Below, piece by piece: positions 1-16,738 of a stretch of 64,000 nt of DNA. Both the position numbers and the translations under genes were made by a program. The notes under the pieces were generated by a model. The model was not told the origin of the DNA. It saw only the letters and a list, made by a program, of their open reading frames with translations, and ran no database searches. The first letter of the stretch is position 1; each line of letters starts with the position of its first letter. The stretch is from Escherichia coli. Its GTDB lineage: Bacteria > Pseudomonadota > Gammaproteobacteria > Enterobacterales > Enterobacteriaceae. The stretch lies in NCBI RefSeq assembly GCF_022846255.1, contig NZ_AP025682.1, one strand, 5' to 3'.

Positions 1-1
1 C

Positions 2-775
2 CGGACCAGCAACGAGCTGCGTAAACAGGGCGTTTTTATCTCCGGCAGTGGTGTCCGTTCTGCCTAGTTACGCCATAACCTTGAGAATTTCAAAAAACGT
101 CTGAAAGCACTGGAAGAAAAAGTAGCCCGTGATGGCATTGAGCTAACTGACAGCCAGATCGCAGCACTGGAGCGTAAAGCCAGTGATGACGAGGTCTGTG
201 GCGAAATCGAAACGGCTCATCCGGGATATCTGGGTTCGCAGGACACGTTCTATGTAGGCAACCTGAAAGGTGTCGGGCGTATTTATCAGCAGACGTTCGT
301 TGATACGTACTCGAAAGTGGCTCACTGTAAGCTTTACGTCATCAAAACACCGATTACCGCGGCTGACTTACCGAATGATCGTGTACTGCCGTTTTATGCG
401 TCTCAGGGCCTGCCGATGCTGAGAATACTGACCGACAGAGGCACAGAGTACTGTGGCAAAGTAGAGCAGCATGATTATCAGCTTTATCTGGCAATAAACG
501 ATATAGAACACACGAAAACAAAGGCGATGTCCCCGCAGACCAACGGCATCTGCGAGCGGTTCCATAAAACAATCCTGAACGAATTTTATCAGGTAACGTT
601 CCGTAAAAACTGTACGGCGATCTTGATACATTACAGTCGGATCTTGATGAATGACTGGCTCACTATAATAATGAGCGAACCCATCAGGGAAAAATGTGCA
701 ATGGGCGGACGCCAATGGAAACGTTACTTGATGGAAAGCGCATCTGGGCCGAGAAAAATTTAAGCCAGATGTAAT
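2..775 (+). pseudogene. Decayed DDE (rve integrase-core) transposase, IS481-like; 5' end lies outside the window
   Basis: Frame 2 translation gives an integrase-core-like sequence (…TDRGTEYCGKVEQHDYQLYLAINDIEHTKTKAMSPQTNGICERFHKTILNEFYQ…). It is broken by an in-frame TAG at 65-67, a frameshift near the A-run at ~605-612, and an in-frame TGA near 655; the C-terminus (…NNERTHQGKMCNGRTPMETLLDGKRIWAEKNLSQM*) continues in another frame to the TAA at 773-775. Confidence 0.6.
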
Positions 776-882
776 CTGACAGATACCTGTATAAATAACC
801 GGTAACTGTCAGATCAGGTCTGAGCTAATACAGCTTATTCATGCAAGGCCAGTGAACATAACTGACCTTGTTAATATATTTA

Positions 883-2673
883 TTAAGTAAATAAAAACGC
901 CTCAACCTCTTTTAAAGTCTTTTCTAAAAAACGCAAAGATTCTCTGCAATCATCATCGCTCATTTGAGCTATTTTTTTTGCTAACGGGATCTTTCGTTTT
1001 TTGGGTATAAGATACTCAATCTTAATTGAGTAGTCTTTGTCTTTTAAATTATCAGAGAGTTTCATTTCTGATTGAATTAACTCATTAACTTTTTCTGGTG
1101 TAAGCATTTCATTTAAATTAGCTCTTCTTTCAAGATTATTTTCTTCTAACTCTTCTTTCCATATTGCAATAGGATAATTGGACTCTAAAACCCCTGGTAT
1201 TTTATAACCATCTTTTTTTGCACTGAGAACATCTTGCGTTGGTTTTAATGTAAAGCATTTAACTGATTTACCAATATCTTGAATATCACCAAGTTCTTTT
1301 TTGACATTTATACCATCTTTATCTGCATCTACAATGCCAACACATTTATATTTGTTTTGATGATGTTTATGGATATGATAATAAGCTTTTAACATGTCAC
1401 AAACATAGTTTGTTCCTGCGCCAAAATCTTTTGTAATTACCTCAATGTCATTCATCCTTTCTGGTATGAAAACTTGTATCGCCCTTTCAATTATAATTTT
1501 ATCGCTGGCTCCCTCTACGTACATTACAGCTTTTTCATCACCAAGTTTACCAACGGATTCAATATTTTCTATACGAGATTTCACCTCATCAATATAGGGT
1601 GAAAGCAATTCCATAACCCCCATTCTGTCATCAAGCAGTGCATATTTATCATCACAAGAGGTTACATCAGTCAAGTCTTTCTCAATAAAAATGCAATTAA
1701 CAGATCTATCTTGTTTTGAGAGATTATAAAATGCAGGAGAATGTGTAGTTATAAATAATTGTGATACAGGATCTGGCACGAAAGTTTTAAACTGTATGGC
1801 AAGCTTGATTGATGACGTTAACTCAAGGTTATTTTCTGGCTCTTCATAGCCCCATATAAATGTATACGGTGGGTTGCCTCTTGCCTGTAGTGTTTTTGTT
1901 TTCTCAGCAATATATTTTAATATTAATGGAATGTGGCGAGCTTTGATTCCATCACCTCGTTCATTAAGAGATATTTTCATTTCATTTAGAAAGTCTAAAT
2001 TCCCAAATAAATTACTTAGATCTCTAGGAAGCGAAAGTTCAGAGTTAAAACCAAGAGATTCGTTAATCTCTTTTGTTAACTCATGAAGATTCTCAGCTAT
2101 ACTCTTCTCAAATGCTTTGCTTGAATCGCTAAAATTCTCATTGAACACAGCATTTACAACAAAATATATTTCACTCCTTAATTTTGCAATATACCCTTTA
2201 TCCTTAATTGCAGGAATATAAACATATTTTACATTATTAAGTAACTGTCTTATATTTGAACGAGCTGGAATTTCTTGCTTTTCTGTTCGTCGACCGCCTC
2301 TAGGGCCACTATATGATTTAATCCCAAGTATACTCTCATCATAAAATCCACCTGAGCGCCATGACTTCGTCCATTCAATTAAATTTCCATTTGTTGCATG
2401 ATAACTAGATGGAATATCAAGAAGTAATTTAATTTTTATCTCTCTAGCTTTTTTAGAATATTTTTTTGCCGCATAAATATTATAGTCAGTTGAAAAATCA
2501 AAAGATTCTCCTGGATTTGTTTGCGAATTAAAGAAGAGGTTTAAAGCTCTTAATATATTTGATTTACCAGCATCATTATTACCAACAATAATCTGTAGTC
2601 GCGCACTATCAATAACTATTTTCTGAATTGATCGAAAATTCGTGATTTCAATTCTTCGAATACTAACCGGCAT
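883..2673 (-). CDS. OLD-family ABC-ATPase/Toprim nuclease (class-1 OLD-like, GajA-like or fused PARIS AriAB-like), ~596 aa
   Basis: N-terminal Walker A (IVGNNDAGKSNILRALNLFF), Walker B/D-loop-like FIWGYEEPENNLE and H-loop-like QLFITTHSPAF; C-terminal Toprim-like motifs (MYVEGASDKIIIE, GIVDADKDG). Start placed at the ATG at 2673 (M37 of the track ORF 883..2781), which has a GAGG Shine-Dalgarno ~8 nt upstream. GC about 30%, well below the core genome. Confidence 0.75.
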   Translation of the reverse strand: MPVSIRRIEITNFRSIQKIVIDSARLQIIVGNNDAGKSNILRALNLFFNSQTNPGESFDFSTDYNIYAAKKYSKKAREIKIKLLLDIPSSYHATNGNLIEWTKSWRSGGFYDESILGIKSYSGPRGGRRTEKQEIPARSNIRQLLNNVKYVYIPAIKDKGYIAKLRSEIYFVVNAVFNENFSDSSKAFEKSIAENLHELTKEINESLGFNSELSLPRDLSNLFGNLDFLNEMKISLNERGDGIKARHIPLILKYIAEKTKTLQARGNPPYTFIWGYEEPENNLELTSSIKLAIQFKTFVPDPVSQLFITTHSPAFYNLSKQDRSVNCIFIEKDLTDVTSCDDKYALLDDRMGVMELLSPYIDEVKSRIENIESVGKLGDEKAVMYVEGASDKIIIERAIQVFIPERMNDIEVITKDFGAGTNYVCDMLKAYYHIHKHHQNKYKCVGIVDADKDGINVKKELGDIQDIGKSVKCFTLKPTQDVLSAKKDGYKIPGVLESNYPIAIWKEELEENNLERRANLNEMLTPEKVNELIQSEMKLSDNLKDKDYSIKIEYLIPKKRKIPLAKKIAQMSDDDCRESLRFLEKTLKEVEAFLFT

Positions 2674-2807
2674 AAAAACCTCATCGTAACGCCTGTTTAT
2701 ATTTATAGCTGATAAAATAACACAACCACAATGAAAGTGAATAGTGAATTGCCACAAGTTTAACAAACACCTCAAGATCATTTAAAATGACTTAAAGAGA
2801 GGCTCCC

Positions 2808-3125
2808 ATGAGCAGTAAGCGTTAACTCGCAGAGTTTAAAATTAAAGCAGTCAAACAGATTGTTGAACATGGTTATTCTGTTTCCCTGCGTTGCAACACA
2901 TCTGTGTAAGTTCACTCTTTAGTGTACAAGCCATGAGCGTCAGTCGTTCCTGAAATAACACGACCATCGCGGTAACTGCCACTATAATGCGGTTACAGAA
3001 AGCTTTTTCCAGTTACTGAAGTCTGAACGGATAAAGAAAAAATCTTCAGCCCCCTGATCTCATCGTGTTATTCACAACAATCCACTCCTGAAATGGCCGT
3101 GAATACAATTTATCAAGGCTAGTGG
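2808..3125 (+). mobile_element. IS3-family transposase orfA remnant with multiple stops
   Basis: Translation MSSKR*LAEFKIKAVKQIVEHGYSVSLRCNTSV* resembles the HTH N-terminus of IS3-family OrfA proteins but is interrupted by stops; no ORF of 60 aa or more survives. Confidence 0.35.
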
Positions 3126-3257
3126 TCACTTTTCCTATTATGATTAGTGAAAACATAAAGTGCGGAAACGAATGAAAATGCACTGTATTATTTAAAGACA
3201 TCATCCAACGCCCTTACCGTGGTATACACTCAGGCACCAGATGCTGTTTTACAGGGT

Positions 3258-3989
3258 TCACCTGCCATCCAGAAGACGCCCCGGCCCACGACTGCAACCA
3301 TAATTACGTTGCCCGGAACCGTCATGCTGCTTCGTCTCATACTTCACGAGATAACTGGCTCTGTTCTGGGCTTTCTGCATCGCTTCCACATCACCACGCT
3401 TGATCCAGAGAACAGCGGCTTCACCCGGCTTTTTGTCTGAAGCCTTCCTGGTTTCAGAACATCCACCCGACAAAGGCGTATCATCGGAAGAAGGGCGAGC
3501 ATCAGATGATGTCGGTTTACGGAAAGGCGTCCGCCTGGAAAAATGAACCAGTCCATTACCCTGCCAGGGCTCAAGATGCAGAGCGCTACACCATGCCAGT
3601 TGTATCAGCGTCGCCAGCGAAGAAGGAACGGTGAAATCCCCTGGCGAGCACCAGGTATCTTTGTTGAGCAGTAATATCACGTGATAATGTTTCCTGCCTT
3701 TTTCCTTGCCAAACTCCCGACACCAGAAATAACGCAGAGTGGTTGCACGCACACGCTTGTTGGCACGTCGTTTATGTCGCTGGTAAGCCTGAATTTTTGC
3801 TTTCAGGGATGCAAAAAAACGAGAAATCACCGCTGAATCTAAATCGGTATCCATGATGGTGGCAGGCATATACTCAGGGAAACGTAAATCCACCCGGATT
3901 AACGAGACGGCACGGTGTTGCGCCAGGGCACTGTTGAGAATACTTTCAAAACGGGATAACCAGTAAGCATTGTGTATTGGTTGATTCAT
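3258..3989 (-). CDS. YagK/YfjJ-family (inovirus Gp2-like) prophage protein
   Basis: 243-aa ORF whose N-terminal half (MNQPIHNAYWLSRFESILNSALAQHRAVSLIRVDLRFPEYMP…RYFWCREFGKEKGRKHYHVILLLNKDTW…) resembles YagK/YfjJ proteins of CP4-type cryptic prophages; GGAG Shine-Dalgarno ~9 nt upstream of the ATG at 3989. The Arg/Ser/Gly-rich C-terminal tail may be read-through. Confidence 0.6.
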   Translation of the reverse strand: MNQPIHNAYWLSRFESILNSALAQHRAVSLIRVDLRFPEYMPATIMDTDLDSAVISRFFASLKAKIQAYQRHKRRANKRVRATTLRYFWCREFGKEKGRKHYHVILLLNKDTWCSPGDFTVPSSLATLIQLAWCSALHLEPWQGNGLVHFSRRTPFRKPTSSDARPSSDDTPLSGGCSETRKASDKKPGEAAVLWIKRGDVEAMQKAQNRASYLVKYETKQHDGSGQRNYGCSRGPGRLLDGR

Positions 3990-5503
3990 GATGAGAGATC
4001 TCCGTTGATTTGGATTGACTTCACATCATTAATCACCGCGGTAAAACTTTACGGCATCCGGCATTGAGCAATGCTACAACTCTCTGATTAAGAGTGATTG
4101 AAACGGAACAAACCATCCCGGAACGAAAAGATAATTCTACACGCAGGGTAAAAACACTCAAGAACAGCGAATGGATTTAAAAACGACATGGACAACGAGA
4201 AAAGTCAGAAGGGAAAAGGATCCACAGAACATTCGAACAAAACACCAGAAACGCAACCAGAACGCTTCCTGGTAATGCAAATCAACAACAACCCCAAAAC
4301 CTACAGCTTAATCACACAACTCAATCACGGATGCGAATGACACGTTTAAAACCTGTTTACAGATAAACCCCGCCACAAGAACAAAAATCACCAACATCAG
4401 AATCGATTTTCTCATCCTGAAAAAGTTACGTTTCACTACGCACCATAAAAACGATTAACCATCGATAACGTAAACCTTATCTGAATCAAAAACACCAAAA
4501 CCGTTCATCACACTTTCGCAATGCAAGAAGAAACCTCATGACAAAAAGAATGACCTTACACGGAAAAGAAAACGTCAGGAATCGTTAATGCCTCAATCTG
4601 ATTGTTATCAAAACATCCAGAAAGTCGTTTAACAGAATCGTCGTAAGCACATCGAAAAAAACGTCAGATTACTTCAGGAAAGTTCGGGTTGATTTAGCGT
4701 AAAGATACTTTTCTCATGCTAACGTCGAAACTCGAAATCTCAGGAAAGGTTAAACGTAACATCAGTAAAATCGAATAGCAGATTGATTGCTGAAGCAGAA
4801 AGGTTTTACAGCAGCATTAAACTGATTTAGTTAACGTAAAGATTTACTAAACTGGATGTGTATAGCAATGCTTAACGAAAACACTTGTAGAAGTGTTTAT
4901 GAAAATACGTGTATAAGACTTACTGAAATGCTTAGTAAAAATACTTAGTAAAATACGTGTATATAGTATCATACCGACATTAGCAACATTCTCAGACACT
5001 CATGCAGACTGAATGTTGATTACCCGTTTTCACATCAGGCATGGTTCTTTACTGACCAAAAAACAAACTGGTTTACTCTTGAATTATTTTCTCTACCTCA
5101 GAAAACATGGTCTCAGGAATCTGCTATGGTTTCATAGTTTCTGTTGTTCCTTTCATAAAAGTTATAAGTCATTGTCATAATCATACGATAATCACTTTAT
5201 GTTAGTTTTTACTGTCACACGCTACTGACTTTTTCAGTCATTGCCAGAAAGGGGCTCTTTTTACTTCCATTTCACCACTCAACAAATGCAAAACTTGTCC
5301 AGTAAAGCGGACCACCTCTTGCTCACAAGCAACGAATCATCTCCAGGAACAGCCCTCAAACATTGCAGAAACAAAAACAACAAAACCCTCATTATCACTG
5401 ATGTTCGGAAAATTTCCCGGAACAAAAAAAACGAAATCAAAATGAGACTCATTATCATGGATGTAGTCAAAAAGACGTTATGGTGGCTTTCAGTTAAATG
5501 GTA
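3990..5503. other. ORF-free, strongly A-rich / T-poor tract (+ strand) with short direct and inverted repeats
   Basis: No credible ORF of 60 aa or more in any frame over ~1.5 kb; extreme A-over-T skew on the + strand; imperfect tandem units around 4860-4975 (repeated aatacgtgtata and gcttaNNNaaaa motifs) and an inverted repeat aacacttgtagaagtgtt. Confidence 0.4.
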
Positions 5504-6634
5504 CTATTTCTCATAAATCCACTTAACTTTTTTTACTGATTCATCCCAGATAACCACTTTATCAGTAAAAAATGAATTATATAGATTGACGAGTTTTTCT
5601 GTTTCAGTTATTCCCAATGTATTATGTATCAGTTGTAGATATGCTTTTATCCAGATTTCTTTACCCTCCCTCCACTTATCTATAAAACTTTCCAGCTTAC
5701 TTAATCGTTGATTTATAAAAAACGAATCAATATCATGAAAAAGCTCAACAAGAAAACAGCACGAGACAATCTCAACAAAAAACAAATTCTCCTTAAAAGT
5801 ATTATAAAACCTTATCAACACATAACGAAAAACACCTCCTGTTAATCTTTCCTGTTCATAAAACAACAAACCAAAAACAGGAGGAAATCTTTTAACCACA
5901 CCACTTTTAATCCAGTAAGGATGATGATTAGTCTTTACTGGCAGTGAATAAAAGAACAATTCGGTTTCTCTTTTCCCACCACAAACAGACAAAACTGTCT
6001 TATAAAGACTTTTTGAATCATTATGTCCTGATACCCCAGACGAATTAGCAGAGTATTTTCTTTTTACTTTTTGCCTTAATGGAGCTGGAAGAATAATAAA
6101 ACGGGATGGCAGATAACAATCGCTTTCAGAAGACCGGCATTCGCACACATGAAGATTTATATTTACATCCGGACAATTCAAAAACCACACAGAATAATTA
6201 TCGCACCGTTTGCAATATGAAACCCATGAATAAATTGCATAAAGTTCAGAAAGCGCATCTAACTCTGCTTTTGAATTAAATGTGATACCGTTTCTTCGAA
6301 TTCTCGTTTCCAGCGTTCTCCATGCCGGGGTTTTCAGTATCTCACGAACTTTTTTATTAAGTTCAGCCAGAGATGGTCCCTGCTCCTGTTTATGTTTCGT
6401 CCTGCTGTTAATGATTTCTCTTTCTTTTACTAATTTCCTCTTTCTTTTTGGTCCTTCTACCTTTCTTGGCAATGCTTCATTTAATCTGTGAACAGGATTT
6501 TGCTCTCTTCTTTTTTTGAGCTCACAAAACCTCTCATAATGTTTTCTGCACAGTCTTTTCTCCACTGCCATTTTTACTGAGAAAACCTGATTGTTACAAT
6601 TTTTTCTGACACATTTGTTTTTACGTCCGGTCAT
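5504..6634 (-). CDS. Hypothetical protein, 376 aa, basic Cys-rich N-terminus (possible zinc-binding/nucleic-acid-binding); function unknown
   Basis: Long ORF at about 35% GC. N-terminus MTGRKNKCVRKNCNN…CRKHYERFCELKKRR and a second Cys cluster YCKRCDNYSVWFLNCPDVNINLHVCECRSSESDC. No family recognised by eye. Confidence 0.6.
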   Translation of the reverse strand: MTGRKNKCVRKNCNNQVFSVKMAVEKRLCRKHYERFCELKKRREQNPVHRLNEALPRKVEGPKRKRKLVKEREIINSRTKHKQEQGPSLAELNKKVREILKTPAWRTLETRIRRNGITFNSKAELDALSELYAIYSWVSYCKRCDNYSVWFLNCPDVNINLHVCECRSSESDCYLPSRFIILPAPLRQKVKRKYSANSSGVSGHNDSKSLYKTVLSVCGGKRETELFFYSLPVKTNHHPYWIKSGVVKRFPPVFGLLFYEQERLTGGVFRYVLIRFYNTFKENLFFVEIVSCCFLVELFHDIDSFFINQRLSKLESFIDKWREGKEIWIKAYLQLIHNTLGITETEKLVNLYNSFFTDKVVIWDESVKKVKWIYEK

Positions 6635-6818
6635 CCTCTCATCTCCTGAAACAGCAGTATGTCATTAGTTCCCGTTCTGAAAAACTGACGCCATACTCCA
6701 TTACACTTTAACAATAATGTCCGTAATTCAGACATTCCATCATTTTTCACGCCCATATTACCTGAATGATAAACCGGATTAGTGTGATCCGGTTCAGTGA
6801 AATCAACAGGATACCGGT

Positions 6819-7703
6819 ATGTCATTCAGCCATTCTTCCCTCTCCGCACAAGTGAAATCATATCTGACGTTTCTTCCTGAAGAAATTCGTCAGAAAATTC
6901 TTGAACATCTCCACAGCGTTATTCATTACGAACCCGTGATTGGCATTATGGGTAAATCCGGCACCGGCAAAAGTAGCCTGTGTAATGCTATTTTTCAGTC
7001 CCATATCTGTGCCACGCATCCCCTGAACGGCTGCACCCGCCAGGCTCATCGTCTTACCCTGCAGATCGGTGAACGCAGAATGACGCTGGTCGATCTGCCC
7101 GGCATTGGAGAGACGCCGCAACATGATCAGGAATACCGGGCGCTTTACCGTCAGTTACTGCCGGAAGTGGATTTGATTATCTGGATCCTGCGGGCAGATG
7201 AACGCGCATATGCCGCCGACATTACCATGCATCAGTTTTTACTGAATGAAGGCGCAGATCCCTCGCGTTTTCTGTTTGTTCTCAGCCATGCCGATCGCGT
7301 GTTTCCTGCTGAAGAATGGAATGCCACAGAAAAATGCCCGTCCCGTCAGCAGGCGCTCTCACTGGCGACGGTGACAGCCCGGGTGGCAACCCTGTTCCCT
7401 TCATCATTTCCGGTACTCTCCGTTGCTGCACCTGTCGGCTGGAACCTTCCGGCGTTTGTGTCGCTGATGATCCACGCACTGCCACCACAGGCAACCAGCG
7501 CGGTGTATTCACATATCCGGGGAGAAAACCGCTCTGAACAGGCCCAGAAACACGCACAACAGACTTTTGGTGAAACCATCGGGAAAAGTTTTGACGTCGC
7601 CGTTGCCCGTTTCAGTTTTCCGGCCTGGATGTTACAGCTTCTGCGTAAAGCCCGGGACCGCATTATCCACCTGCTGATCACACTGTGGGAGCGTCTGTTC
7701 TGA
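6819..7703 (+). CDS. YfjP/YkfA/YeeP-family GTPase (CP4-type prophage)
   Basis: P-loop GIMGKSGTGKSSLCNAIF and G3-like DLPGIGE motifs; 294 aa. Confidence 0.8.
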   Translation: MSFSHSSLSAQVKSYLTFLPEEIRQKILEHLHSVIHYEPVIGIMGKSGTGKSSLCNAIFQSHICATHPLNGCTRQAHRLTLQIGERRMTLVDLPGIGETPQHDQEYRALYRQLLPEVDLIIWILRADERAYAADITMHQFLLNEGADPSRFLFVLSHADRVFPAEEWNATEKCPSRQQALSLATVTARVATLFPSSFPVLSVAAPVGWNLPAFVSLMIHALPPQATSAVYSHIRGENRSEQAQKHAQQTFGETIGKSFDVAVARFSFPAWMLQLLRKARDRIIHLLITLWERLF

Positions 7704-7905
7704 CACACTCACGCCGACAGGATGTGTCGCTGGATTAACGAGCATTCTTCTTTTTATGAAATCATGCTTAAAAATCAGATAATTAAAAGAATATTTTTTC
7801 TGCTGCATTTTATTCCTGATTATCCGGATGCGACACATCCTTTCAACATCATGATGCATAATAACATCATGAAATAAAAGATGTTTTCTTACGGAGTGCA
7901 CATCT

Positions 7906-8586
7906 ATGTCTGATAATCGTTCCCGGCATGATCGCCTGGCGGTTCGCTTATCACTCATTATCAGCCGACTGATGGCCGGAGAATCTCTGTCACTAAAAAC
8001 ACTGTCAGATGAATTTGGCGTTACAGAACGTACTTTACAGCGCGATTTTCATCAGCGTCTGGTTCACCTGGATTTAGAGTACAGAAATGGCAGGTACAGC
8101 CTCAGACGACAGAGCAGCCCAGGTGCGATCCCTGAAATGCTTTCTTTTATACAGAATACCGGGATCGCACGGATACTTCCGCTCCGGAACGGACGACTGA
8201 TAACCTGTCTTACCGACAACCAGGAGCCCTCTCCCTGCCTTATCTGGCTACCGGCGCCGGATATCACTGCAACGTTCCCCGAGTGTTTCTCGCAACTCAT
8301 CCTGGCAATAAGACAGTGTATCCACATCTCTCTGATGACTGAGCGATGGTATCCGTCACTGGAGCCCTGCCGGCTCATTTATTACAGCGGTAGCTGGTAT
8401 CTGATCGCGTTACAGAAGGGAAAACTGCAGGTCTTTCCTCTGGCAGATATCAAATCAGTCAGCCTGACATCAGAACGGTTTGAACGGAGAGGCCACATCC
8501 ACAGTCTGGTCGCTGAAGAGCGTTTTATCTCCGCCCTGCCACATTTCTCTTTCATCCATAAACTTATCAACACCTTTAACCTGTGA
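7906..8586 (+). CDS. YfjR-like transcriptional regulator (HTH + WYL-like domain)
   Basis: 226-aa ORF with an N-terminal HTH-like segment (LKTLSDEFGVTERTLQRDFHQ); sits in the conserved position after the GTPase gene. Confidence 0.65.
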   Translation: MSDNRSRHDRLAVRLSLIISRLMAGESLSLKTLSDEFGVTERTLQRDFHQRLVHLDLEYRNGRYSLRRQSSPGAIPEMLSFIQNTGIARILPLRNGRLITCLTDNQEPSPCLIWLPAPDITATFPECFSQLILAIRQCIHISLMTERWYPSLEPCRLIYYSGSWYLIALQKGKLQVFPLADIKSVSLTSERFERRGHIHSLVAEERFISALPHFSFIHKLINTFNL

Positions 8587-8733
8587 TCGCCGGCCTGCCA
8601 AAGCCGTCCCGACAGGTATGGAGACAATATGTTGAACAGAAAACTAAATATACGGCTACGTCATTCCCTGAACAGTCACTGCATACCTTCCGTCATTATC
8701 AATAACACCGTACGTTCATTTCAGAGGTCAGTC

Positions 8734-9411
8734 ATGAATACCAGAGCTCTTTTTCCCCTGCTGTTCACTGTGGCATCATTCTCCGCCTCCGCCGGCAACT
8801 GGGCTGTCAAAAACGGCTGGTGTCAGACCATGACGGAAGATGGTCAGGCGCTGGTAATGCTGAAAAATGGCACGATTGGTATTACCGGCCTGATGCAGGG
8901 ATGCCCGAATGGCGTACAGACGCTCCTGGGCAGCCGTATCAGTATTAACGGTAACCTGATCCCCACATCACAAATGTGTAATCAGCAGACGGGATTCAGG
9001 GCTGTTGAGGTGGAAATCGGACAGGCGCCGGAAATGGTCAAAAAAGCCGTTCACTCCATAGCAGAGCGTGATGTGTCCGTTTTACAGGCATTTGGTGTAC
9101 GAATGGAATTCACCCGCGGTGATATGCTGAAGGTCTGTCCGAAATTTGTCACATCACTTGCCGGTTTTTCCCCGAAACAGACGACCACTATTAATAAAGA
9201 TTCCGTCCTGCAGGCTGCCCGGCAGGCATACGCCCGGGAATATGACGAGGAAACAACAGAAACCGCTGATTTTGGCTCTTACGAAGTAAAAGGCAATAAG
9301 GTTGAGTTTGAAGTATTCAATCCTGAAGACCGTGCGTACGACAAAGTGACCGTCACGGTTGGTGCTGACGGTAATGCCACCGGCGCCAGCGTTGAATTTA
9401 TCGGAAAATAG
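8734..9411 (+). CDS. Secreted/periplasmic hypothetical protein with signal peptide
   Basis: Start placed at M36 of the track [24 protein letters not shown], a signal-peptide-like N-terminus. Confidence 0.6.
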
Positions 9412-9416
9412 CCGGT

Positions 9417-9650
9417 ATGTCGGACTGCCACCCTGTTTTATTGCCCGAAGGCCCTTTCTCACGCGAACAGGCGGTTGCCGTCACAACAGCTTACCGCAAT
9501 GTGCTTATTGAAGATGACCAGGGAACGCATTTCCGGCTGGTTATCCGCAATGCCGAAGGGCAGCTACGCTGGCGGTGCTGGAATTTTGAACCTGATGCCG
9601 GAAAACAGCTAAATTCGTATCTCGCCAGTGAGGGAATTCTCAGGCAATAA
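9417..9650 (+). CDS. Small conserved prophage protein (DUF905-like)
   Basis: 77-aa ORF tightly packed between neighbours on the same strand. Confidence 0.5.
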
Positions 9651-9739
9651 ACGTCTTCATTTCATCCATCAGGCCGCGTCTTCTCCGGGAGACGCGGCCT
9701 TTTCGTTTATACCGCTAATTCATTCATAAGGAGCAAAGT

Positions 9740-10558
9740 ATGCAATTAGCCAGTCGTTTTGGTCATGTAAATCAGATCCGTCGGGAGCGCCCACTGACAC
9801 GCGAAGAACTGATGTACCACGTCCCGAGTATTTTTGGAGAAGACCGGCACACCTCCCGCAGTGAACGGTATGCGTACATTCCCACCATCACCGTCCTGGA
9901 AAATCTGCAGCGGGAAGGCTTTCAGCCGTTCTTCGCCTGCCAGACCCGTGTGCGCGACCAGAGCCGCCGGGAATATACCAAACATATGCTGCGTCTGCGG
10001 CGGGCCGGACAGATAACCGGTCAGCATGTGCCTGAAATTATTCTGCTCAACTCCCATGACGGTTCATCCAGCTACCAGATGTTACCCGGATATTTTCGTG
10101 CCATCTGCACCAATGGCTTGGTCTGCGGTCAGTCGCTGGGAGAAGTCCGGGTGCCCCACCGGGGAAACGTGGTGGACAGGGTGATTGAAGGTGCTTACGA
10201 AGTGGTGGGCGTGTTTGACCGGATTGAGGAAAAGCGTGATGCCATGCAGTCGCTGGTCCTGCCGCCACCGGCACGCCAGGCGCTGGCACAGGCGGCGCTG
10301 ACTTACCGTTATGGTGATGAACATCAGCCCGTCACCACTACCGACATTCTGACGCCACGACGCCGGGAGGATTACGGTAAGGACCTGTGGAGTGCTTATC
10401 AGACCATCCAGGAAAATATGCTGAAAGGCGGGATTTCCGGTCGCAGTGCCAGAGGAAAACGTATCCATACCCGGGCCATTCGCAGCATCGATACCGACAT
10501 TAAGCTCAACCGGGCGTTGTGGGTGATGGCAGAAACGCTGCTGGAGAGCATGCGCTGA
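9740..10558 (+). CDS. DUF932 family protein (YfjQ/YafZ-like)
   Basis: 272-aa ORF; MQLASRFGHVNQIRRERPLTREELMYHVPSIFGEDRHTSRSERYAYIPTITVLENLQREGFQPFFACQT… is typical of YafZ/YfjQ. Confidence 0.8.
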   Translation: MQLASRFGHVNQIRRERPLTREELMYHVPSIFGEDRHTSRSERYAYIPTITVLENLQREGFQPFFACQTRVRDQSRREYTKHMLRLRRAGQITGQHVPEIILLNSHDGSSSYQMLPGYFRAICTNGLVCGQSLGEVRVPHRGNVVDRVIEGAYEVVGVFDRIEEKRDAMQSLVLPPPARQALAQAALTYRYGDEHQPVTTTDILTPRRREDYGKDLWSAYQTIQENMLKGGISGRSARGKRIHTRAIRSIDTDIKLNRALWVMAETLLESMR

Positions 10559-10649
10559 TGCTGTTTCCCTGAAAGTGCAGCCCTGACTCACGTCTGTACC
10601 AGTCCCCAGGCATTCTTCCATTCATTTACTTTTTATAAGGAATCATCTC

Positions 10650-11135
10650 ATGACAACCTTTTCGCATAGCTCCACCACACCTTCTGTTTCCGTAACTACT
10701 GCATCAGGGAATAACCAGTCTCAACTGGTTGCCACTCCCGTCCCTGATGAACAGCGCATCAGCTTCTGGCCGCAGCACTTTGGCCTCATTCCACAGTGGG
10801 TGACCCTGGAGCCCCGTGTCTTCGGCTGGATGGACCGTCTGTGTGAAGACTACTGCGGGGGTATCTGGAATCTGTACACCCTGAACAACGGTGGCGCATT
10901 TATAGCACCTGAACCGGATGAAGATGATGGAGAAACCTGGATACTGTTCAATGCCATGAACGGTAACCGCGCTGAAATGAGCCCGGAAGCTGCCGGCATT
11001 GCCGCCTGTCTGATGGCGTACAGCCATCATGCCTGTCGTACGGAGTGTTATGCCATGACGGTCCACTATTACCGGCTGCGGGATTACGCCCTGCAACATC
11101 CGGAATGCAGCGCCATTATGCGCATCATTGACTGA
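10650..11135 (+). CDS. Antirestriction protein (ArdB/KlcA-like; YfjX/YeeS-neighbour family)
   Basis: 161-aa ORF with the conserved …WPQHFGLIPQWVTLEPRVFGWMDRLCEDYCGGIWNLYTLNNGGAFIAPE… pattern. Confidence 0.8.
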   Translation: MTTFSHSSTTPSVSVTTASGNNQSQLVATPVPDEQRISFWPQHFGLIPQWVTLEPRVFGWMDRLCEDYCGGIWNLYTLNNGGAFIAPEPDEDDGETWILFNAMNGNRAEMSPEAAGIAACLMAYSHHACRTECYAMTVHYYRLRDYALQHPECSAIMRIID

Positions 11136-11149
11136 AAGGGGCCGGAACA

Positions 11150-11626
11150 ATGCAACAGATTTCCTTTCTGCCCGGAGAAATGACGCCCGGTGAGCGCAGC
11201 CTCATTCAGCGGGCCCTGAAAACCCTGGACCGCCATCTTCATGAACCCGGCGTGGCCTTCACCTCCACGCATGCGGCACGGGAATGGCTGATTCTGAACA
11301 TGGCGGGACTGGAGCGTGAAGAATTCCGGGTGCTGTATCTGAACAACCAGAATCAGCTGATTGCCGGTGAAACCCTCTTCACCGGCACCATCAACCGCAC
11401 GGAAGTCCATCCCCGGGAAGTGATTAAACGCGCCCTGTATCACAATGCCGCTGCCGTGGTGCTGGCACACAATCACCCGTCCGGTGAAGTCACACCCAGT
11501 AAGGCAGACCGGCTTATCACCGAACGTCTGGTACAGGCACTGGCCCTGGTGGATATCCGGGTGCCGGACCATCTGATAGTCGGTGGCAACCAGGTTTTCT
11601 CCTTTGCGGAACACGGTCTGCTTTAA
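11150..11626 (+). CDS. RadC-like JAB-domain protein (YeeS/YfjY/YkfG family)
   Basis: JAMM motif HNHPSGEVTPSKAD in a 158-aa ORF. Confidence 0.85.
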   Translation: MQQISFLPGEMTPGERSLIQRALKTLDRHLHEPGVAFTSTHAAREWLILNMAGLEREEFRVLYLNNQNQLIAGETLFTGTINRTEVHPREVIKRALYHNAAAVVLAHNHPSGEVTPSKADRLITERLVQALALVDIRVPDHLIVGGNQVFSFAEHGLL

Positions 11627-11688
11627 CCCGTCACAACTACATCACACTTGTTTTCACTTTTATCTTCTGTCTTCAGAGGTATCCCATC

Positions 11689-11910
11689 ATGAAAATTATC
11701 ACCCGTGGTGAAGCCATGCGTATTCACCAACAGCATCCTGCATCCCGTCTTTTTCCGTTCTGTACCGGTAAGTACCGCTGGCACGGCAGCGCTGAAGCGT
11801 ATACCGGTCGTGAAGTGCAGGATATTCCCGGCGTTCTTGCCGTGTTTGCTGAACGCCGTAAGGACAGTTTTGGCCCGTATGTCCGGCTGATGAGCGTCAC
11901 TCTGAACTGA
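11689..11910 (+). CDS. DUF987 protein (YeeT-like)
   Basis: 73-aa ORF MKIITRGEAMRIHQQHPASRLFPFCTGKYRWHGSAEAYTGREVQDIPGVLAVFAERRKDSFGPYVRLMSVTLN. Confidence 0.75.
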   Translation: MKIITRGEAMRIHQQHPASRLFPFCTGKYRWHGSAEAYTGREVQDIPGVLAVFAERRKDSFGPYVRLMSVTLN

Positions 11911-11989
11911 GTCAGGAAGGGCATTCAGAAGAGCAGAATTATCGCCACCACCGGACCATTCTTAACCAATTTTCTGTGAGGATTTTATT

Positions 11990-12358
11990 GTGTCAGACAC
12001 ATTCTCCGGGACAACGCATCCCGATGACAATCACGACCGCCCCTGGTGGGGGCTGCCCTGTACCGTGACACCTTGTTTTGGCGCCCGTCTGGTGCAGGAG
12101 GGTAACCGGTTGCATTACCTTGCCGACCGCGCCGATATCAGAGGCCGGTTCAGCGACGCGGATGCGTACCATCTGGACCAGGCCTTTCCGCTGCTGATGA
12201 AACAACTGGAGCTCATGCTCACCAGCGGTGAACTGAATCCCCGCCATCAGCATACCGTCACGCTGTATGCAAAAGGGCTGACCTGCGAAGCCGACACCCT
12301 CGGCAGTTGTGGCTACGTTTATATGGCTGTTTATCCGACGCCCGAAACGAAAAAGTAA
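11990..12358 (+). CDS. Type IV antitoxin of the CbeA/YeeU family
   Basis: 122-aa ORF immediately upstream of a CbtA-like gene; …WGLPCTVTPCFGARLVQEGNRLHYLADRA… matches the YeeU/CbeA pattern. Confidence 0.85.
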   Translation: MSDTFSGTTHPDDNHDRPWWGLPCTVTPCFGARLVQEGNRLHYLADRADIRGRFSDADAYHLDQAFPLLMKQLELMLTSGELNPRHQHTVTLYAKGLTCEADTLGSCGYVYMAVYPTPETKK

Positions 12359-12447
12359 ACCACCGGAATAATCGTCTGTTCCGGCCTGGTGCTTTCACCA
12401 CGCCACTTTTCCATTTTTCATCTCTGCATATCAGGAAAATCTTCAGT

Positions 12448-12825
12448 ATGAAAACATTACCTGTATTACCCGGGCAGGCGGCCAGTTCACGCCCGTCTCC
12501 GGTTGAAATCTGGCAGACACTGCTCACCCGACTGCTGGACCAGCATTACGGCCTTACGCTGAATGACACACCGTTCGCTGATGAACGTGTGATTGAGCAG
12601 CATATTGAGACAGGCATTTCACTGTGCGATGCGGTGAACTTTCTCGTTGAAAAATACACACTGGTACGTACCGACCAGCCAGGATTCAGCGCCTGTACCC
12701 GTTCTCAGTTAATAAACAGTATTGATATCCTCCGGGCCCGCCGGGCAACCGGCCTGATGGCCCGCGACAATTACAGAACGGTAAATAACATTACCCTGGG
12801 TAAACATCCGGGGGCGAAACAATGA
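12448..12825 (+). CDS. Type IV toxin of the CbtA/YeeV family
   Basis: Start at M48 of the track ORF; MKTLPVLPGQAASSRPSPVEIWQTLLTRLLDQHYGLTLNDTPFADERVIEQHIETGISLCDAVNFLVEKYTLVRTDQPGF…. Confidence 0.85.
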   Translation: MKTLPVLPGQAASSRPSPVEIWQTLLTRLLDQHYGLTLNDTPFADERVIEQHIETGISLCDAVNFLVEKYTLVRTDQPGFSACTRSQLINSIDILRARRATGLMARDNYRTVNNITLGKHPGAKQ

Positions 12826-13310
12826 AACTGGCCCTGACGCTGGAAGCCGACAGCATTAACGTGCAGGCACTGAACATGGGGCGCATTGTCGTTGACGTCG
12901 ATGGTGTTACTCTCGCTTAACTGATTAACGTGGTCTGCGATAACGGTTACTCCCTTCGTGTTGTTGATGAATCTGACCGGACATCAGCAGAGCGCACGCC
13001 ACCATCTGCGGCCCTTACCGGCATACGCTGCAGTACCGCGCATATCACGGCAAAGGACAACGCCTGGCTGTACTCGCTGTCACATCAGACGAATGGCACC
13101 GGCGAATCAGAATGGATTCATTTTACAGGTAGCGGATATCTGTTACGTACCGGTGCGTGGTCGTACCCGGTTCTGCGGCTTAAACGCCTGGGGCTGTCCA
13201 GAACGTTCCGCCGTCTGGTTGTCACACTCATCCGGCGTTATGGCGTCAGTCTCATTCATCTGGATGCCAGTGCCGGATGTCTGCCGGGTTTACCCACTTT
13301 CGACTGGTAA
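12822..13310 (+). pseudogene. YeeW-like prophage gene interrupted by an in-frame TAA
   Basis: ATG at 12822 overlaps the cbtA-like stop (ATGA). Frame 0 reads MKLALTLEADSINVQALNMGRIVVDVDGVTLA, then TAA at 12918-12920, then continues in the same frame (LINVVCDNGYSLRVVDESDR… to the stop at 13308-13310). Confidence 0.5.
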
Positions 13311-13326
13311 TCCGGAAATTCACAAC

Positions 13327-13524
13327 ATGAAATCATTAACCACGGAAACCGCACTGGATATTCTGATTGCGTGGCTGCAGGACAATATCGACTGCGAATC
13401 GGGAATTATCTTTGACAACGATGAGGATAGAACGGATTCGGCAGCACTGTTGCCCTGTATCGAACAGGCCAGGGAGGATATCCGTATCCTGCGCCAGTTG
13501 CAGCTTCTGCAACAGAACCGGTGA
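13327..13524 (+). CDS. Small hypothetical prophage protein (65 aa)
   Basis: ATG-initiated ORF MKSLTTETALDILIAWLQDNIDCESGIIFDNDEDRTDSAALLPCIEQAREDIRILRQLQLLQQNR; corresponds to the C-terminal part of the track ORF 12958..13524. Confidence 0.45.
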   Translation: MKSLTTETALDILIAWLQDNIDCESGIIFDNDEDRTDSAALLPCIEQAREDIRILRQLQLLQQNR

Positions 13525-13608
13525 GTCTTACTCACCAGACTTCATTCCACTGACGCCAGCCTGAACAGGGCTGGCGTTTTCATTTATCTGCAAAAAGGAA
13601 TATCGATT

Positions 13609-14451
13609 ATGTCTGAAATCACAGCCCCCCGTCCGGAAGTGGTCAACGGGCATACGGACGTTATCTGCTCAACCAGTATCCGCCACATTCTGGCTGTACG
13701 AAAGAGTACGCTGCTGCAAATCGACACACTTACCCGGCAACTGGCTGAAATCTCAGCAATGACAGAAAGCATTGGCGGTAAAACCGCACTGGACTGGGCG
13801 ATGAAACAGGATTTTCGCTGCGGCTGCTGGCTCATGGAGAAAACTGAAACGGCAATGAAAGCCATCACCCGAAACCTTGACCGTGAAATCTGGCGTGACC
13901 TGATGCAACGCTCCGGGATGCTGTCATTAATGGATGCGCAGACCCGTGATACATGGTACCGGTCACTGGAGTACAATAATTTTCCGGAAATCAGTGAAGC
14001 GAACATTCTGAGCACATTTGAACAACTGCACCAGAATAAGGATGAGGTGTTTGAGCGAGGGGTGATCAACGTCTTCAGGGGACTGAGCTGGGATTACAAA
14101 ACCAACTCACCCTGTAAATTTGGCAGTAAAATTATCGTCAACAACCTGGTGAGGTGGGACCGGTGGGGGTTTCATCTTATCACCGGGCAACAGACTGACC
14201 GACTCGTCGACCTGGAAAGAATGCTACATCTGTTCAGCGGCAAACCGATCCCCGACAACCGGGAAAACATCACTATTCGTCTGGATGGTCACATCCAGTC
14301 CGTTCAGGGTAAAGAGCGCTATGAAGACGAGATGTTCATCATTAAATACTTTAAGAAGGGATCTGCACACATCACTTTCAAAAGGCTGGAACTGATTGAC
14401 AGAATTAACGATATAATAGCCAGGTACTTTCCTTCTGTGCTCTCAGCCTGA
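13609..14451 (+). CDS. DUF4942-family protein (terminal gene of CP4-like elements)
   Basis: 280-aa ORF at the island end, just inside the tRNA-derived repeat. Confidence 0.7.
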   Translation: MSEITAPRPEVVNGHTDVICSTSIRHILAVRKSTLLQIDTLTRQLAEISAMTESIGGKTALDWAMKQDFRCGCWLMEKTETAMKAITRNLDREIWRDLMQRSGMLSLMDAQTRDTWYRSLEYNNFPEISEANILSTFEQLHQNKDEVFERGVINVFRGLSWDYKTNSPCKFGSKIIVNNLVRWDRWGFHLITGQQTDRLVDLERMLHLFSGKPIPDNRENITIRLDGHIQSVQGKERYEDEMFIIKYFKKGSAHITFKRLELIDRINDIIARYFPSVLSA

Positions 14452-14561
14452 TCCCGAGTGTGATTCCCTTTCGATATCAAAAGGGACTGCGGGTATAATT
14501 GAGGGTACATTTTTAATCAAACCAAACAAATTGTATTAATATCAATATGATAAAAGAAATT

Positions 14562-14583
14562 TTCGATTCCGAGTCCGGCACCA
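14562..14583 (+). repeat. tRNA-Phe (pheU) 3'-end copy; island attachment-site direct repeat (right boundary)
   Basis: ttcgattccgagtccggcacca matches the 3' end of E. coli tRNA-Phe (TTCGATTCCGAGTCCGGGCACCA, recalled) with one G missing; the upstream sequence does not continue the tRNA. Confidence 0.7.
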
Positions 14584-14592
14584 AATTCATAT

Positions 14593-14622
14593 AAACGGAC
14601 CTCCACGGAGGTCCGTTTTTCG
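14593..14622 (+). terminator. Rho-independent terminator-like hairpin downstream of the tRNA-derived repeat
   Basis: ggacctcc-ac-ggaggtcc stem followed by gttttt. Confidence 0.6.
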
Positions 14623-15199
14623 TTTCAGGACGCCACGATTTAAGCGTCCTGCCGCCAAATCAATTCTACCGAACTCAACCAGATTCTCCCCACATCACCA
14701 GCAATTTACGGGCATATTCCAATTCGGGAAAATTTGTTTCTGAGCTATAGCGCTGACTGACGTGAAATGTCGTGCGGCCCCGTGATGCTGTTGAACGTCA
14801 AATGACGTCATCAGGAGCGTAACGCACCCATAAAGCACAACATCGGGCAGAACGCCAACTGATGAGATTTTCTGAATAAGAACAAAGAGAAATGTATCAG
14901 TCCGTTTGCTCATGCAAAGACTAACAATCCATTAAAATAGTAAGCGCTCCGGACAATTTTTCATGGATTATTTTCTGAACATTTTTCTTTGGCAAAGATG
15001 ATGAATTTTGATGGTAAGGAAAATTACTTCTGGTTCTCAGTAAAATCCTTTCGTAATACTATGTAATCAAGAAGTTTATGGCGGGTAAAAATAACGTCCT
15101 ACATTCACCAATAATATGTAAATAAACCCATCTATAGATGGAAAAAATAGGTTATGGCAATTATCATTGCATCATTCCCTTTTCGAATGAGTTTCTATT

Positions 15200-16738
15200 A
15201 TGCAACAACCTGTAGTTCGCGTTGGCGAATGGCTTGTTACTCCGTCCATAAACCAAATTAGCCGCAATGGGCGTCAACTTACCCTTGAGCCGAGATTAAT
15301 CGATCTTCTGGTTTTCTTTGCTCAACACAGTGGCGAAGTACTTAGCAGGGATGAACTTATCGATAATGTCTGGAAGAGAAGTATTGTCACCAATCACGTT
15401 GTGACGCAGAGTATCTCAGAACTACGTAAGTCATTAAAAGATAATGATGAAGATAGTCCTGTCTATATCGCTACTGTACCAAAGCGCGGCTATAAATTAA
15501 TGGTGCCGGTTATCTGGTACAGCGAAGAAGAGGGAGAGGAAATAATGCTATCTTCGCCTCCCCCTATACCAGAGGCGGTTCCTGCCACAGATTCTCCCTC
15601 CCACAGTCTTAACATTCAAAACACCACAACGCCACCTGAACAATCCCCAGTTAAAAGCAAACGATTCACTACCTTTTGGGTATGGTTTTTTTTCCTGTTG
15701 TCGTTAGGTATCTGTGTCGCACTGGTAGCGTTTTCAAGTCTTGAAACACGTCTTCCTATGAGTAAATCGCGCATTTTGCTCAATCCACGCGATATTGACA
15801 TTAATATGGTTAATAAGAGTTGTAACAGCTGGAGTTCTCCGTATCAGCTCTCTTACGCGATAGGCGTGGGTGATTTGGTGGCGACATCACTTAACACCTT
15901 CTCCACCTTTATGGTGCATGACAAAATCAACTACAACATTGATGAACCGAGCAGTTCCGGTAAAACATTATCTATTGCGTTTGTTAATCAGCGCCAATAC
16001 CGTGCTCAACAATGCTTTATGTCGGTAAAATTGGTAGACAATGCAGATGGTTCAACCATGCTGGATAAACGTTATGTCATCACTAACGGTAATCAGCTGG
16101 CGATTCAAAATGATTTGCTCCAGAGTTTATCAAAAGCGTTAAACCAACCGTGGCCACAACGAATGCAGGAGATGCTCCAGCAAATTTTGCCGCATCGTGG
16201 TGCGTTATTAACTAATTTTTATCAGGCACATGATTATTTACTGCATGGTGATGATAAATCATTGGATCGTGCCAGTGAATTATTAGGTGAGATTGTTCAA
16301 TCATCCCCAGAATTTACCTACGCGAGAGCAGAAAAAGCATTAGTTGATATCGTGCGCCATTCTCAACATCCTTTAGACGAAAAACAATTAGCAGCACTGA
16401 ACACAGAAATAGATAACATTGTTACACTACCGGAATTGAACAACTTGTCCATTATATATCAAATAAAAGCGGTCAGTGCCCTGGTAAAAGGTAAAACAGA
16501 TGAGTCTTATCAGGCGATAAATACTGGCATTGATCTTGAAATGTCCTGGCTAAATTATGTGTTGCTTGGCAAGGTTTATGAAATGAAGGGGATGAACCGG
16601 GAAGCAGCTGATGCATATCTCACCGCCTTTAATTTACGCCCAGGGGCAAACACCCTTTACTGGATTGAAAATGGTATATTCCAGACTTCTGTTCCTTATG
16701 TTGTACCTTATCTCGACAAATTTCTCGCTTCAGAATAA
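15200..16738 (+). CDS. cadC: CadC, membrane-integrated ToxR-like activator of the cadBA operon
   Basis: 512 aa; N-terminal winged-helix segment (MQQPVVRVGEWLVTPSINQISRNGRQLTLEPRLIDLLVFFAQHSGEVLSRDELIDNVW), transmembrane segment and periplasmic sensor; upstream of cadBA. Confidence 0.95.
   Translation: MQQPVVRVGEWLVTPSINQISRNGRQLTLEPRLIDLLVFFAQHSGEVLSRDELIDNVWKRSIVTNHVVTQSISELRKSLKDNDEDSPVYIATVPKRGYKLMVPVIWYSEEEGEEIMLSSPPPIPEAVPATDSPSHSLNIQNTTTPPEQSPVKSKRFTTFWVWFFFLLSLGICVALVAFSSLETRLPMSKSRILLNPRDIDINMVNKSCNSWSSPYQLSYAIGVGDLVATSLNTFSTFMVHDKINYNIDEPSSSGKTLSIAFVNQRQYRAQQCFMSVKLVDNADGSTMLDKRYVITNGNQLAIQNDLLQSLSKALNQPWPQRMQEMLQQILPHRGALLTNFYQAHDYLLHGDDKSLDRASELLGEIVQSSPEFTYARAEKALVDIVRHSQHPLDEKQLAALNTEIDNIVTLPELNNLSIIYQIKAVSALVKGKTDESYQAINTGIDLEMSWLNYVLLGKVYEMKGMNREAADAYLTAFNLRPGANTLYWIENGIFQTSVPYVVPYLDKFLASE

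Follow-up and report, generated by a model that had tools for sequence, protein, structure and literature searches.

Insertion sequences (ISs) of the IS481 family are elements of ~1-1.3 kb bounded by terminal inverted repeats, as ISfinder describes them. Their target-site duplications range from 2 to 15 bp and are mostly 6 bp (PMC10045372). The closest described counterpart of the element analysed here is the pseudogene HPE52_RS22705 of Escherichia coli SCU-176 (NZ_CP054345.1 4715800-4716838), which lies at the same locus with the same junctions, is 99.9% identical over positions 1-900 of our window (the whole stretch of E. coli DNA under analysis, 64 kb), and is annotated as 'IS481 family transposase; frameshifted; internal stop'; it has counterparts in ~20 other complete genomes. 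The copy in our window differs from HPE52_RS22705 and these counterparts by one additional stop codon, a TAG that is present in the window only. A candidate relative on another replicon is rlgA (PSLT044) of the Salmonella virulence plasmid pSLT, and 919 PLSDB plasmid records carry a match to the IS (567 from Escherichia, 215 from Salmonella, 60 from Klebsiella, and the remainder from others). A plasmid-borne IS481-family element has been annotated as 'ISAzs36' (PMC12393075), which is a nearest-hit label and not an identification. We found no name specific to this element, since RefSeq and PLSDB give only 'IS481 family transposase' and the literature that we searched holds family-level descriptions only.

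We defined the element from an intact copy in E. coli Z1323CEC0019, which has arsC on one side and hda on the other, and used this 1201-bp IS (NZ_CP148401.1, complement of 1864998-1866198) as the reference. Its transposase (WP_024236841.1, 346 aa) is encoded by a single ORF at IS positions 103-1143, with an N-terminal helix-turn-helix (HTH) and an rve core and without the orfA/orfB frameshift arrangement. The protein scored 292.6 bits with NCBIfam model NF033577 (cut-off 224), and the Pfam domains HTH_29, rve and rve_3 were found at 74.9, 30.6 and 47.0 bits, respectively. SQDTFYV (168), LTDRGTEY (232) and NGICERFH (270) contain the candidate DDE residues, and all three motifs align with those of a second IS481-family transposase. 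At its ends, alignment by blastn revealed 26-bp imperfect terminal inverted repeats that start with TGT (TGTATTAGTCGCGACTTGATCTGACA and TGTATTAGCTCAGACCTGATCTGACA), and the whole is flanked by a 7-bp target-site duplication, TCTTATC. When the IS and one repeat copy were removed, the reconstructed empty site (300 nt) was found as contiguous sequence in 5,419 genomes, with best matches that were 100% identical; thus, both the ends and the duplication of the intact copy are established. In this way comparison with intact copies, which the preliminary description of the locus had proposed to take from ISfinder and which we took from RefSeq, defined the element, its original ends and its duplication. 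The IS has in common with the IS481 family a DDE transposase that is encoded by one ORF and contains an HTH and an rve core, a length of ~1.2 kb and repeats that start with TGT, and its 7-bp duplication falls within the reported range of 2-15 bp (PMC10045372). Copies are common on the chromosomes and plasmids of E. coli, E. albertii and Salmonella, and one of the complete E. coli genomes carries the IS at 5 places.

The start of the window corresponds to IS positions 369-1201, with 99.04% identity over 833 nt (7 mismatches and 1 gap by blastn against the intact copy at L002:2133-3333). Since an identity of 99.0% is maintained over 833 nt of an intact IS, we consider chance resemblance ruled out, and on this alignment window 1-832 is assigned to the IS481-family element. 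The 5' 368 nt of the IS fall upstream of the window edge, such that window base 1 is within codon 89 and the first whole codon is codon 90 (window 2-4). What remains of the transposase gene covers the DDE/rve catalytic core and the C-terminus. It begins in frame 2, as RTSNELRKQGVFISGSGVRSA, the TAG stop (preceded by ...GVRSA) and LRHNLENFKKRLKALEEK..., and stays open to ...NEFYQVTFRK at ~604. At the A-run the reading moves to frame 1, in which the homologous continuation begins with KLYGDLDTLQSDLDE, the TGA stop and LAHYNNERTHQGK, and extends after that stop as LAHYNNERTHQGKMCNGRTPMETLLDGKRIWAEKNLSQM to end at ...NLSQM and the native stop codon, TAA at 772-774. Translation of the window with the lesions repaired gave Pfam scores of 48.1 bits for rve_3 (cut-off 26.5) and 26.9 bits for rve, as well as 204.4 bits for NF033577 (model positions 82-283), despite the 89 missing N-terminal codons; the next best family model, IS3, reached only 53-82 bits. 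The right terminal inverted repeat is the same as that in the intact copy, and its reverse complement, TGTATTAGCTCAGACCTGATCTGACA, pairs with the left repeat, TGTATTAGTCGCGACTTGATCTGACA. Of 5,426 complete E. coli genomes, 1,409 contained a match to window 1-900 by megablast, always annotated as 'IS481 family transposase', and blastn detected no other copy of the IS, whole or partial, in the 64-kb window. We conclude that window 1-832 almost certainly belongs to an old copy of the 1201-bp IS481-family IS that is in decay and unable to make its transposase, and of which the 3' two-thirds are present. The preliminary description had placed an element at 2-775, which fits the pseudogene remnant (2-774); the IS itself reaches 832, and the gene is cut by the window edge. 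The features of the locus are collected in Table 1.

Table 1. Features of the IS copy, its lesions and the adjoining DNA (window coordinates)
Feature	Position	Strand	Basis or detail
IS481-family IS, 3' 833 nt	1..832	+	blastn to intact copy
Transposase pseudogene remnant, codons 90-346 of 346	2..774	+	frame translations, alignment, Pfam, NCBIfam
TGG>TAG, W111 to stop	65..67	+	G>A at window 66
C>T, A154V	195	+	codon-by-codon mapping
C>T, T203I	342	+	codon-by-codon mapping
T>C, L213P	372	+	codon-by-codon mapping
A6>A5 (IS 973-978), frameshift at codon 292	605..609	+	one A lost
TGG>TGA, W307 to stop	652..654	+	G>A at window 654
Right terminal inverted repeat, TGTCAGATCAGGTCTGAGCTAATACA	807..832	+	same as in intact copy
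Junction DNA, IS end to OLD-like gene stop	833..882		sequence, flank comparison
OLD-like ATP-dependent nuclease gene, intact	883..2673	-	596 aa by RefSeq start; ORF open to 2781
Probable IS3-family debris	2744..3200	+	orfA N-terminal fragment with internal stop and rve C-terminus fragment

The window copy departs from the family in being a pseudogene, with two nonsense mutations and one frameshift, and in having no target-site duplication. It is not an active element, capable of autonomous transposition, as its transposase ORF is broken. Because the intact copies have TGG, A6 and TGG at the three altered sites, every lesion represents a departure from a functional sequence. From this alignment, we conclude that both stops are G>A transitions in Trp codons and that the frameshift is a homopolymer slip. 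The earlier proposals for this gene thus held: an rve-type transposase pseudogene, in which a TAG and a TGA had each replaced Trp by a G-to-A change and a frameshift lay in the A-run, read in the frames that had been assigned. The TGA, which had been put near 655, was located exactly at 652-654, and the run, put near 605-612, is five A residues at 605-609 in place of six. The prospect that the stops were native to the element, which the preliminary description had named as grounds for abandoning its reading, did not materialise, as the intact copies read TGG at both sites. Moreover, Trp307 aligns with a Trp of an IS481-family transposase that is only 26% identical.

Three other substitutions, A154V, T203I and L213P, distinguish the window copy from both reference copies (L002 and L003). 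All three of these lineage-specific non-stop changes are missense, and codon-by-codon mapping found no lineage-specific synonymous change in the window copy. The remaining mismatches (window 63 and 705) are peculiar to the reference copy, since pCEA224S, a second copy, has the base of the window at each of these positions. A further lesion, a 1-nt deletion of C near IS position 287 (~codon 62), was seen in all sister loci examined (L001, L007, L008 and L009) and lies upstream of the window edge. By the same comparison, the DNA upstream of the window would begin the IS with the left inverted repeat TGTATTAATCG...; the left repeat, the start codon and the upstream frameshift are known from genomes that are 99.9% identical to the window over the first 900 nt, and only from these.

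We considered that the gene might be functional and its interruptions be recoded, by a programmed frameshift on the A-run and read-through of the stops, in the manner of IS3 orfAB. IS3-family elements use homopolymeric A-run motifs for programmed -1 frameshifting, the frameshift in the window does fall in a homopolymeric A-run, and RefSeq annotates a 'programmed frameshift' for neighbouring IS3 and IS1 elements. In contrast, the intact copies of this IS consist of one uninterrupted 346-aa ORF with A6 and TGG, the shift that the window copy would require is +1/-2 and not -1, and the version with A5 and TGA is limited to a single locus linked to the OLD-like gene (21 records). Furthermore, neither TAG nor TGA is known to be read as Trp in E. 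coli, and the three lineage-specific non-stop substitutions are all missense. We therefore rejected programmed frameshifting and read-through, whose probability we consider negligible, given that the intact copies are uninterrupted and that the altered sites occur at this locus only. The interruptions are, in our reading, lesions.

We examined the distribution of the lesions among 5,426 complete E. coli genomes. The whole of the 1-900 stretch, including the junction between the IS and the nuclease gene, is present in 21 records (99.4-99.9% identity). A 111-nt probe that spans the A-run and the TGA was matched perfectly by 20 records and at 99.1% by a single further record, such that the version with A5 and TGA occurs at 99% or above in exactly the 21 genomes that carry the junction. 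Among the matches listed, all other full-length matches to this probe were at 98.2%, as expected for copies with A6 and TGG, and none showed A5 or TGA in a copy away from the OLD-linked locus; the reference copies that we aligned carry A6 and TGG. From their confinement to the 21 junction genomes, we conclude that A5 and TGA had a single origin, in this copy, and that the two frameshifts and the TGA predate the spread of the island module through ~21 sequenced E. coli genomes.

The distribution of the TAG is different. A 73-nt probe carrying the TAG found no match at 100% among 375 E. coli records, every best match having one mismatch, and position 66 is the only difference between SCU-176 and window 1-900. 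Since the TAG is absent from all 5,426 genomes, it is private to this strain; it is probably the youngest lesion and would have arisen later, only in the lineage of this strain. Might some of the lesions instead be errors of sequencing or assembly, chiefly the strain-private TAG and the length of the homopolymer? Homopolymer miscounts are common on some sequencing platforms, and the TAG rests on one sequence, being absent from all of the other 375 records. In contrast, 20 complete genomes that were sequenced independently agree on A5 and TGA (a further genome matches at 99.1%), and hence these two lesions are real; if the TAG were removed as a base-call error the copy would still be a pseudogene. 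We thus regard error as very unlikely overall, and a base-call error as the less probable account of the TAG itself.

Other changes have accumulated at the sister loci, for which RefSeq pseudogene flags are found in SCU-176 (L001), B1, FEX669 and TUM12357. Codon 111 carries another change in FEX669 and TUM12357, T>A, which gives AGG. In strain B1, an IS3 has cut off the left 164 nt of the IS, and in TUM12357 an IS1 removed the nuclease gene except for 209 nt.

The preliminary description had called the element dead. With respect to autonomous transposition this claim stands: the transposase ORF is broken, and from the reading frames no full-length transposase is expected from this copy. In principle, mobilisation in trans is possible, and we considered that the element might be non-autonomous yet mobile, moved by an intact copy elsewhere in the genome. 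Its right inverted repeat matches that of the intact copy exactly and the left repeat, as read in sister genomes, has 2 substitutions in its first 31 positions; intact copies are present in many E. coli genomes, at 5 places in the one mentioned above. Against this, the left and right junctions are constant in all sister genomes examined, the version with the lesions is found at one fixed place per genome, with no sign that the copy ever moved, and the 64-kb window holds no intact copy. Thus, we consider mobility in trans improbable.

The right end of the IS, at window 832, lies 50 bp downstream of the OLD-like nuclease gene, which is on the opposite strand (stop codon at 883-885). Within the intervening DNA there is an imperfect inverted repeat (caaggccagt...actgaccttg, at ~844-870) that was not called as a terminator in a scan with the consensus. 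A target-site duplication, which had been proposed as something to look for, was absent: we found no 7-bp duplication at the ends of the IS at this locus, where the flanks read ...AATTGGA on the left and GCTTATT... on the right, in contrast to the TCTTATC that flanks the reference copy. The left flank is ...AATT(A/T)AATTGGA in three sister genomes, and the right flank, GCTTATTCATG..., is shared by the window and all 4 of the sister genomes examined. The left-flank sequence is present in ~1,570 E. coli genomes. We take the missing duplication as evidence of a later rearrangement, and not as evidence against membership in the IS481 family.

Relatives of the nuclease cassette that lack the IS point in the same direction. 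We found an 85%-identical cassette, with no IS beside the gene at this position, in four E. coli genomes; three of these cassettes are homologous to the window from 835 to ~2743, and the fourth only from 954, the point at which an IS1 adjoins the gene. Homology to these cassettes thus stops at 835, 3 nt from the end of the IS. In 3 of 3 relatives examined the gene is at the edge of a prophage, and in two it is followed downstream by ~750 bp of unannotated DNA, which in Sx181-0-1 holds a 3' fragment of a tRNA gene. A search for the downstream DNA of one of these 85% relatives (L004:5299-6003) beyond the IS or elsewhere in the window found nothing past the 60 nt that adjoin the gene. Likewise, we found no IS-free version of the OLD allele at 99% identity or above; every complete E. 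coli genome with this allele has the IS remnant. Because there is no duplication and the homology of the cassette ends 3 nt away, the DNA beyond the IS is not the original neighbour of the cassette, and judging from these comparisons the IS marks a rearrangement junction. We infer that the junction is most likely the scar of an exchange between two IS copies or of a deletion adjacent to the IS, either of which would have joined the OLD cassette to the island backbone.

The preliminary description had raised the possibility that the insertion removed whatever lay downstream of the OLD-family gene. A rearranged junction is indeed what we found, but no functional gene is shown to have been lost, and the OLD-like ORF itself is intact. 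The protein has an N-terminal ABC-type ATPase (Pfam AAA_15, 75.8 bits), and among PDB entries it matched GajA (8j4t, E=3.6e-6, residues 2-407) and OLD (6p74, E=0.004). The C-terminal 272 aa have no Pfam match, including to Toprim, and two motifs in the translation, ...MYVEGASD... and ...GIVDADKDG... (E and DxD), fit a Toprim domain by eye only. Homologues are named 'ATP-dependent endonuclease of the OLD family'.

Specifically, the IS insertion might have deleted a functional partner of the nuclease, such as a GajB-type helicase, and thereby have crippled a defence system. Such a loss would be compatible with the missing duplication and with the end of cassette homology at the IS, and the best PADLOC profiles for the protein (AriA, GajA and Old) include members of the two-gene systems Gabija (GajA/GajB) and PARIS (AriA/AriB). 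These matches, however, are mostly confined to the N-terminal ATPase, and the OLD-like gene differs from both systems in having no adjoining partner: we found neither a GajB partner (UvrD-like helicase) nor an AriB partner (DUF4435 Toprim) here, in the 85% relatives, or beside four distant homologues. In the 85% relatives the nuclease gene is the last of the prophage, and what follows is ~520 bp of non-coding DNA and the tRNA fragment, with no gene. The downstream neighbours of the distant homologues are unrelated in Morganella (81% identical, within a lambdoid prophage), Aeromonas (70%), Enterobacter mori (57%, where the next gene is convergent and umuC-like) and Frateuria (43%), and single-protein homologues of ~600 aa with full-length coverage are widespread. 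We thus consider the loss of a partner highly improbable; the OLD-like gene appears from its relatives to behave as a stand-alone unit, with no lost gene indicated.

The backbone to which the cassette is joined belongs to a genomic island. Over its first 14.4 kb the window aligns collinearly, at 93-97% identity, with an SCU-176 island arm that encodes Gp2/YagK-YfjJ-like proteins, a GTPase, a DUF932 protein, an antirestriction protein, RadC and a YeeU/CbtA toxin-antitoxin pair. In the window the arm ends just upstream of cadC, at a 22-nt repeat (14562-14583, with one G missing) that we take to be the 3' end of tRNA-Phe; the SCU-176 arm abuts yicL. We recognised the repeat by reading the sequence, as a search with the full tRNA-Phe 3' pattern at up to 3 mismatches gave no match because of the 1-nt deletion in the repeat. 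No tRNA gene was found in the island arm, and no RNA family was found in 1-15,500 by Rfam at the gathering score.

Homology of the backbone to other islands halts at the left end of the IS and resumes at ~3201. Since the backbone breaks there, the IS remnant, the nuclease cassette and ~450 nt of debris together constitute a variable slot. The debris matched HTH_Tnp_1 at 17.6 bits and rve_3 at 15.3 bits, both of which are below the Pfam cut-offs. The IS copy thus sits in a slot for variable cargo, within a genomic island that is associated with tRNA-Phe.

In the same slot of 20KM2762, an unrelated IS481-family element is found, together with a restriction endonuclease gene in the place of the OLD-like nuclease. 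The transposase of this element is 26% identical to that of our IS; the element has inverted repeats of its own as well as a duplication of 7 bp (AGTCAGG), and its start lies ~10 nt past the insertion point of our IS in the homologous backbone. The near-coincidence of the two insertions could reflect site preference or could be coincidence.

A more speculative reading, which we think unlikely, is that the IS marks a point at which IS481-family elements preferentially enter, on the border of a variable slot for defence genes, where recombination swaps cassettes. In tRNA-associated islands of E. coli, the proposed point of entry has a YagK/YfjJ (Gp2-like) gene on either side. If such elements did target this boundary, and recombination between their copies did exchange defence cassettes between islands and prophages, then the duplication-free junction at our locus would be the trace of such an exchange.

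In itself the locus is ordinary genomic debris, already annotated as an IS481-family pseudogene at sister loci in RefSeq, and it matters little beyond being a textbook case of the decay of an insertion sequence. Our analysis adds the precise identity of the element, including where it ends and which duplication it makes. It also shows how the lesions are distributed, in what order they arose and that a duplication is absent at this locus, and it provides evidence that the nuclease need not have lost a partner gene. The placement of an OLD-like defence cassette between scars of insertion sequences is consistent with, and no proof of, the shuffling of defence genes by such elements. As a phylogenetic marker the copy is more informative: the three shared lesions identify one island module in ~21 complete E. 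coli genomes, and the one private nonsense mutation marks this strain.

The variable slot of the island, which in the window holds the IS481 remnant and the OLD-like nuclease gene, is flanked by two paralogous genes annotated as inovirus Gp2 / YagK-YfjJ. After the left paralogue comes an AT-rich stretch of ~1.1 kb, non-coding and without annotation, which shows 80-95% conservation across ~1,570 E. coli genomes. On the far side of the OLD-like cassette, window 2744-3200 is probably IS3-family debris, with two recognizable fragments that both score below the Pfam threshold. At 90% identity or more, this debris occurs almost exclusively alongside the window's OLD allele.

Features of the island and its variable slot
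Feature	Position	Remark
Inovirus Gp2 / YagK-YfjJ paralogues, slot flanks	window 3258-3989; L001 (sister locus) 3915-4481	
orfA-like start, MSSKR*LAEFKIKAVKQIVEHGYSVS	within window 2744-3200	Pfam score below threshold
rve C-terminal fragment, GNCHYNAVTESFFQLLKSERI	within window 2744-3200	Pfam score below threshold
tRNA-Phe 3'-end copy, ttcgattccgagtccggcacca	window 14562-14583	one G missing

The OLD-like nuclease cassette itself (window 835-2743) is a portable unit. Four other E. coli genomes have a version with 85% identity at a prophage edge, and the gene content of that prophage includes pinE, tail-fibre genes and a LEM-3-like GIY-YIG gene. More distant OLD-like homologues are found in unrelated contexts, and their neighbours are not conserved.

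The island module also occupies different places. Its 14.4-kb arm (window 1-14400) is 93-97% identical to that of strain SCU-176, where it adjoins yicL/nlpA, while in the window's strain it adjoins the cadCBA region; thus, the chromosomal site of the module varies among strains. In the window, the arm ends at a short repeat that matches tRNA-Phe at its 3' end except for one missing G. A hairpin and its T-run come directly after the repeat, and cadC (15200-16738) lies ~600 nt downstream of it. The repeat probably marks the island boundary at the pheU site. No intact tRNA gene occurs anywhere in the 64-kb window.

Sister loci continue to erode. In strain B1, an IS3 has cost the IS481 remnant its left 164 nt (L007 2606-3797), and in TUM12357 a deletion by an IS1 leaves only 209 nt of the nuclease gene (L009 5057-5754). 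The Trp111 codon of the remnant (IS position 433) reads AGG (W>R) in both FEX669 and TUM12357; this change and the TAG at window 65-67 arose independently at the same codon.

We also observed an IS481-family element, unrelated to the window copy, in E. coli 20KM2762 (NZ_CP151063.1; ~6030-7060 of locus L011 in that record). Its 323-aa transposase scores 267 bits against NF033577 and has 26% identity to that of the window element. The 20KM2762 element is bounded by inverted repeats of its own and flanked by a 7-bp duplication, AGTCAGG. The backbone around it is 88% identical to that of the window's island, and the element is offset by ~10 nt from the homologous insertion point; in window coordinates, the site falls just before position 1. 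The next gene, on the opposite strand, encodes a restriction endonuclease. 20KM2762 and the window's strain share one slot, which is occupied by different insertion sequences and different defence cargo.
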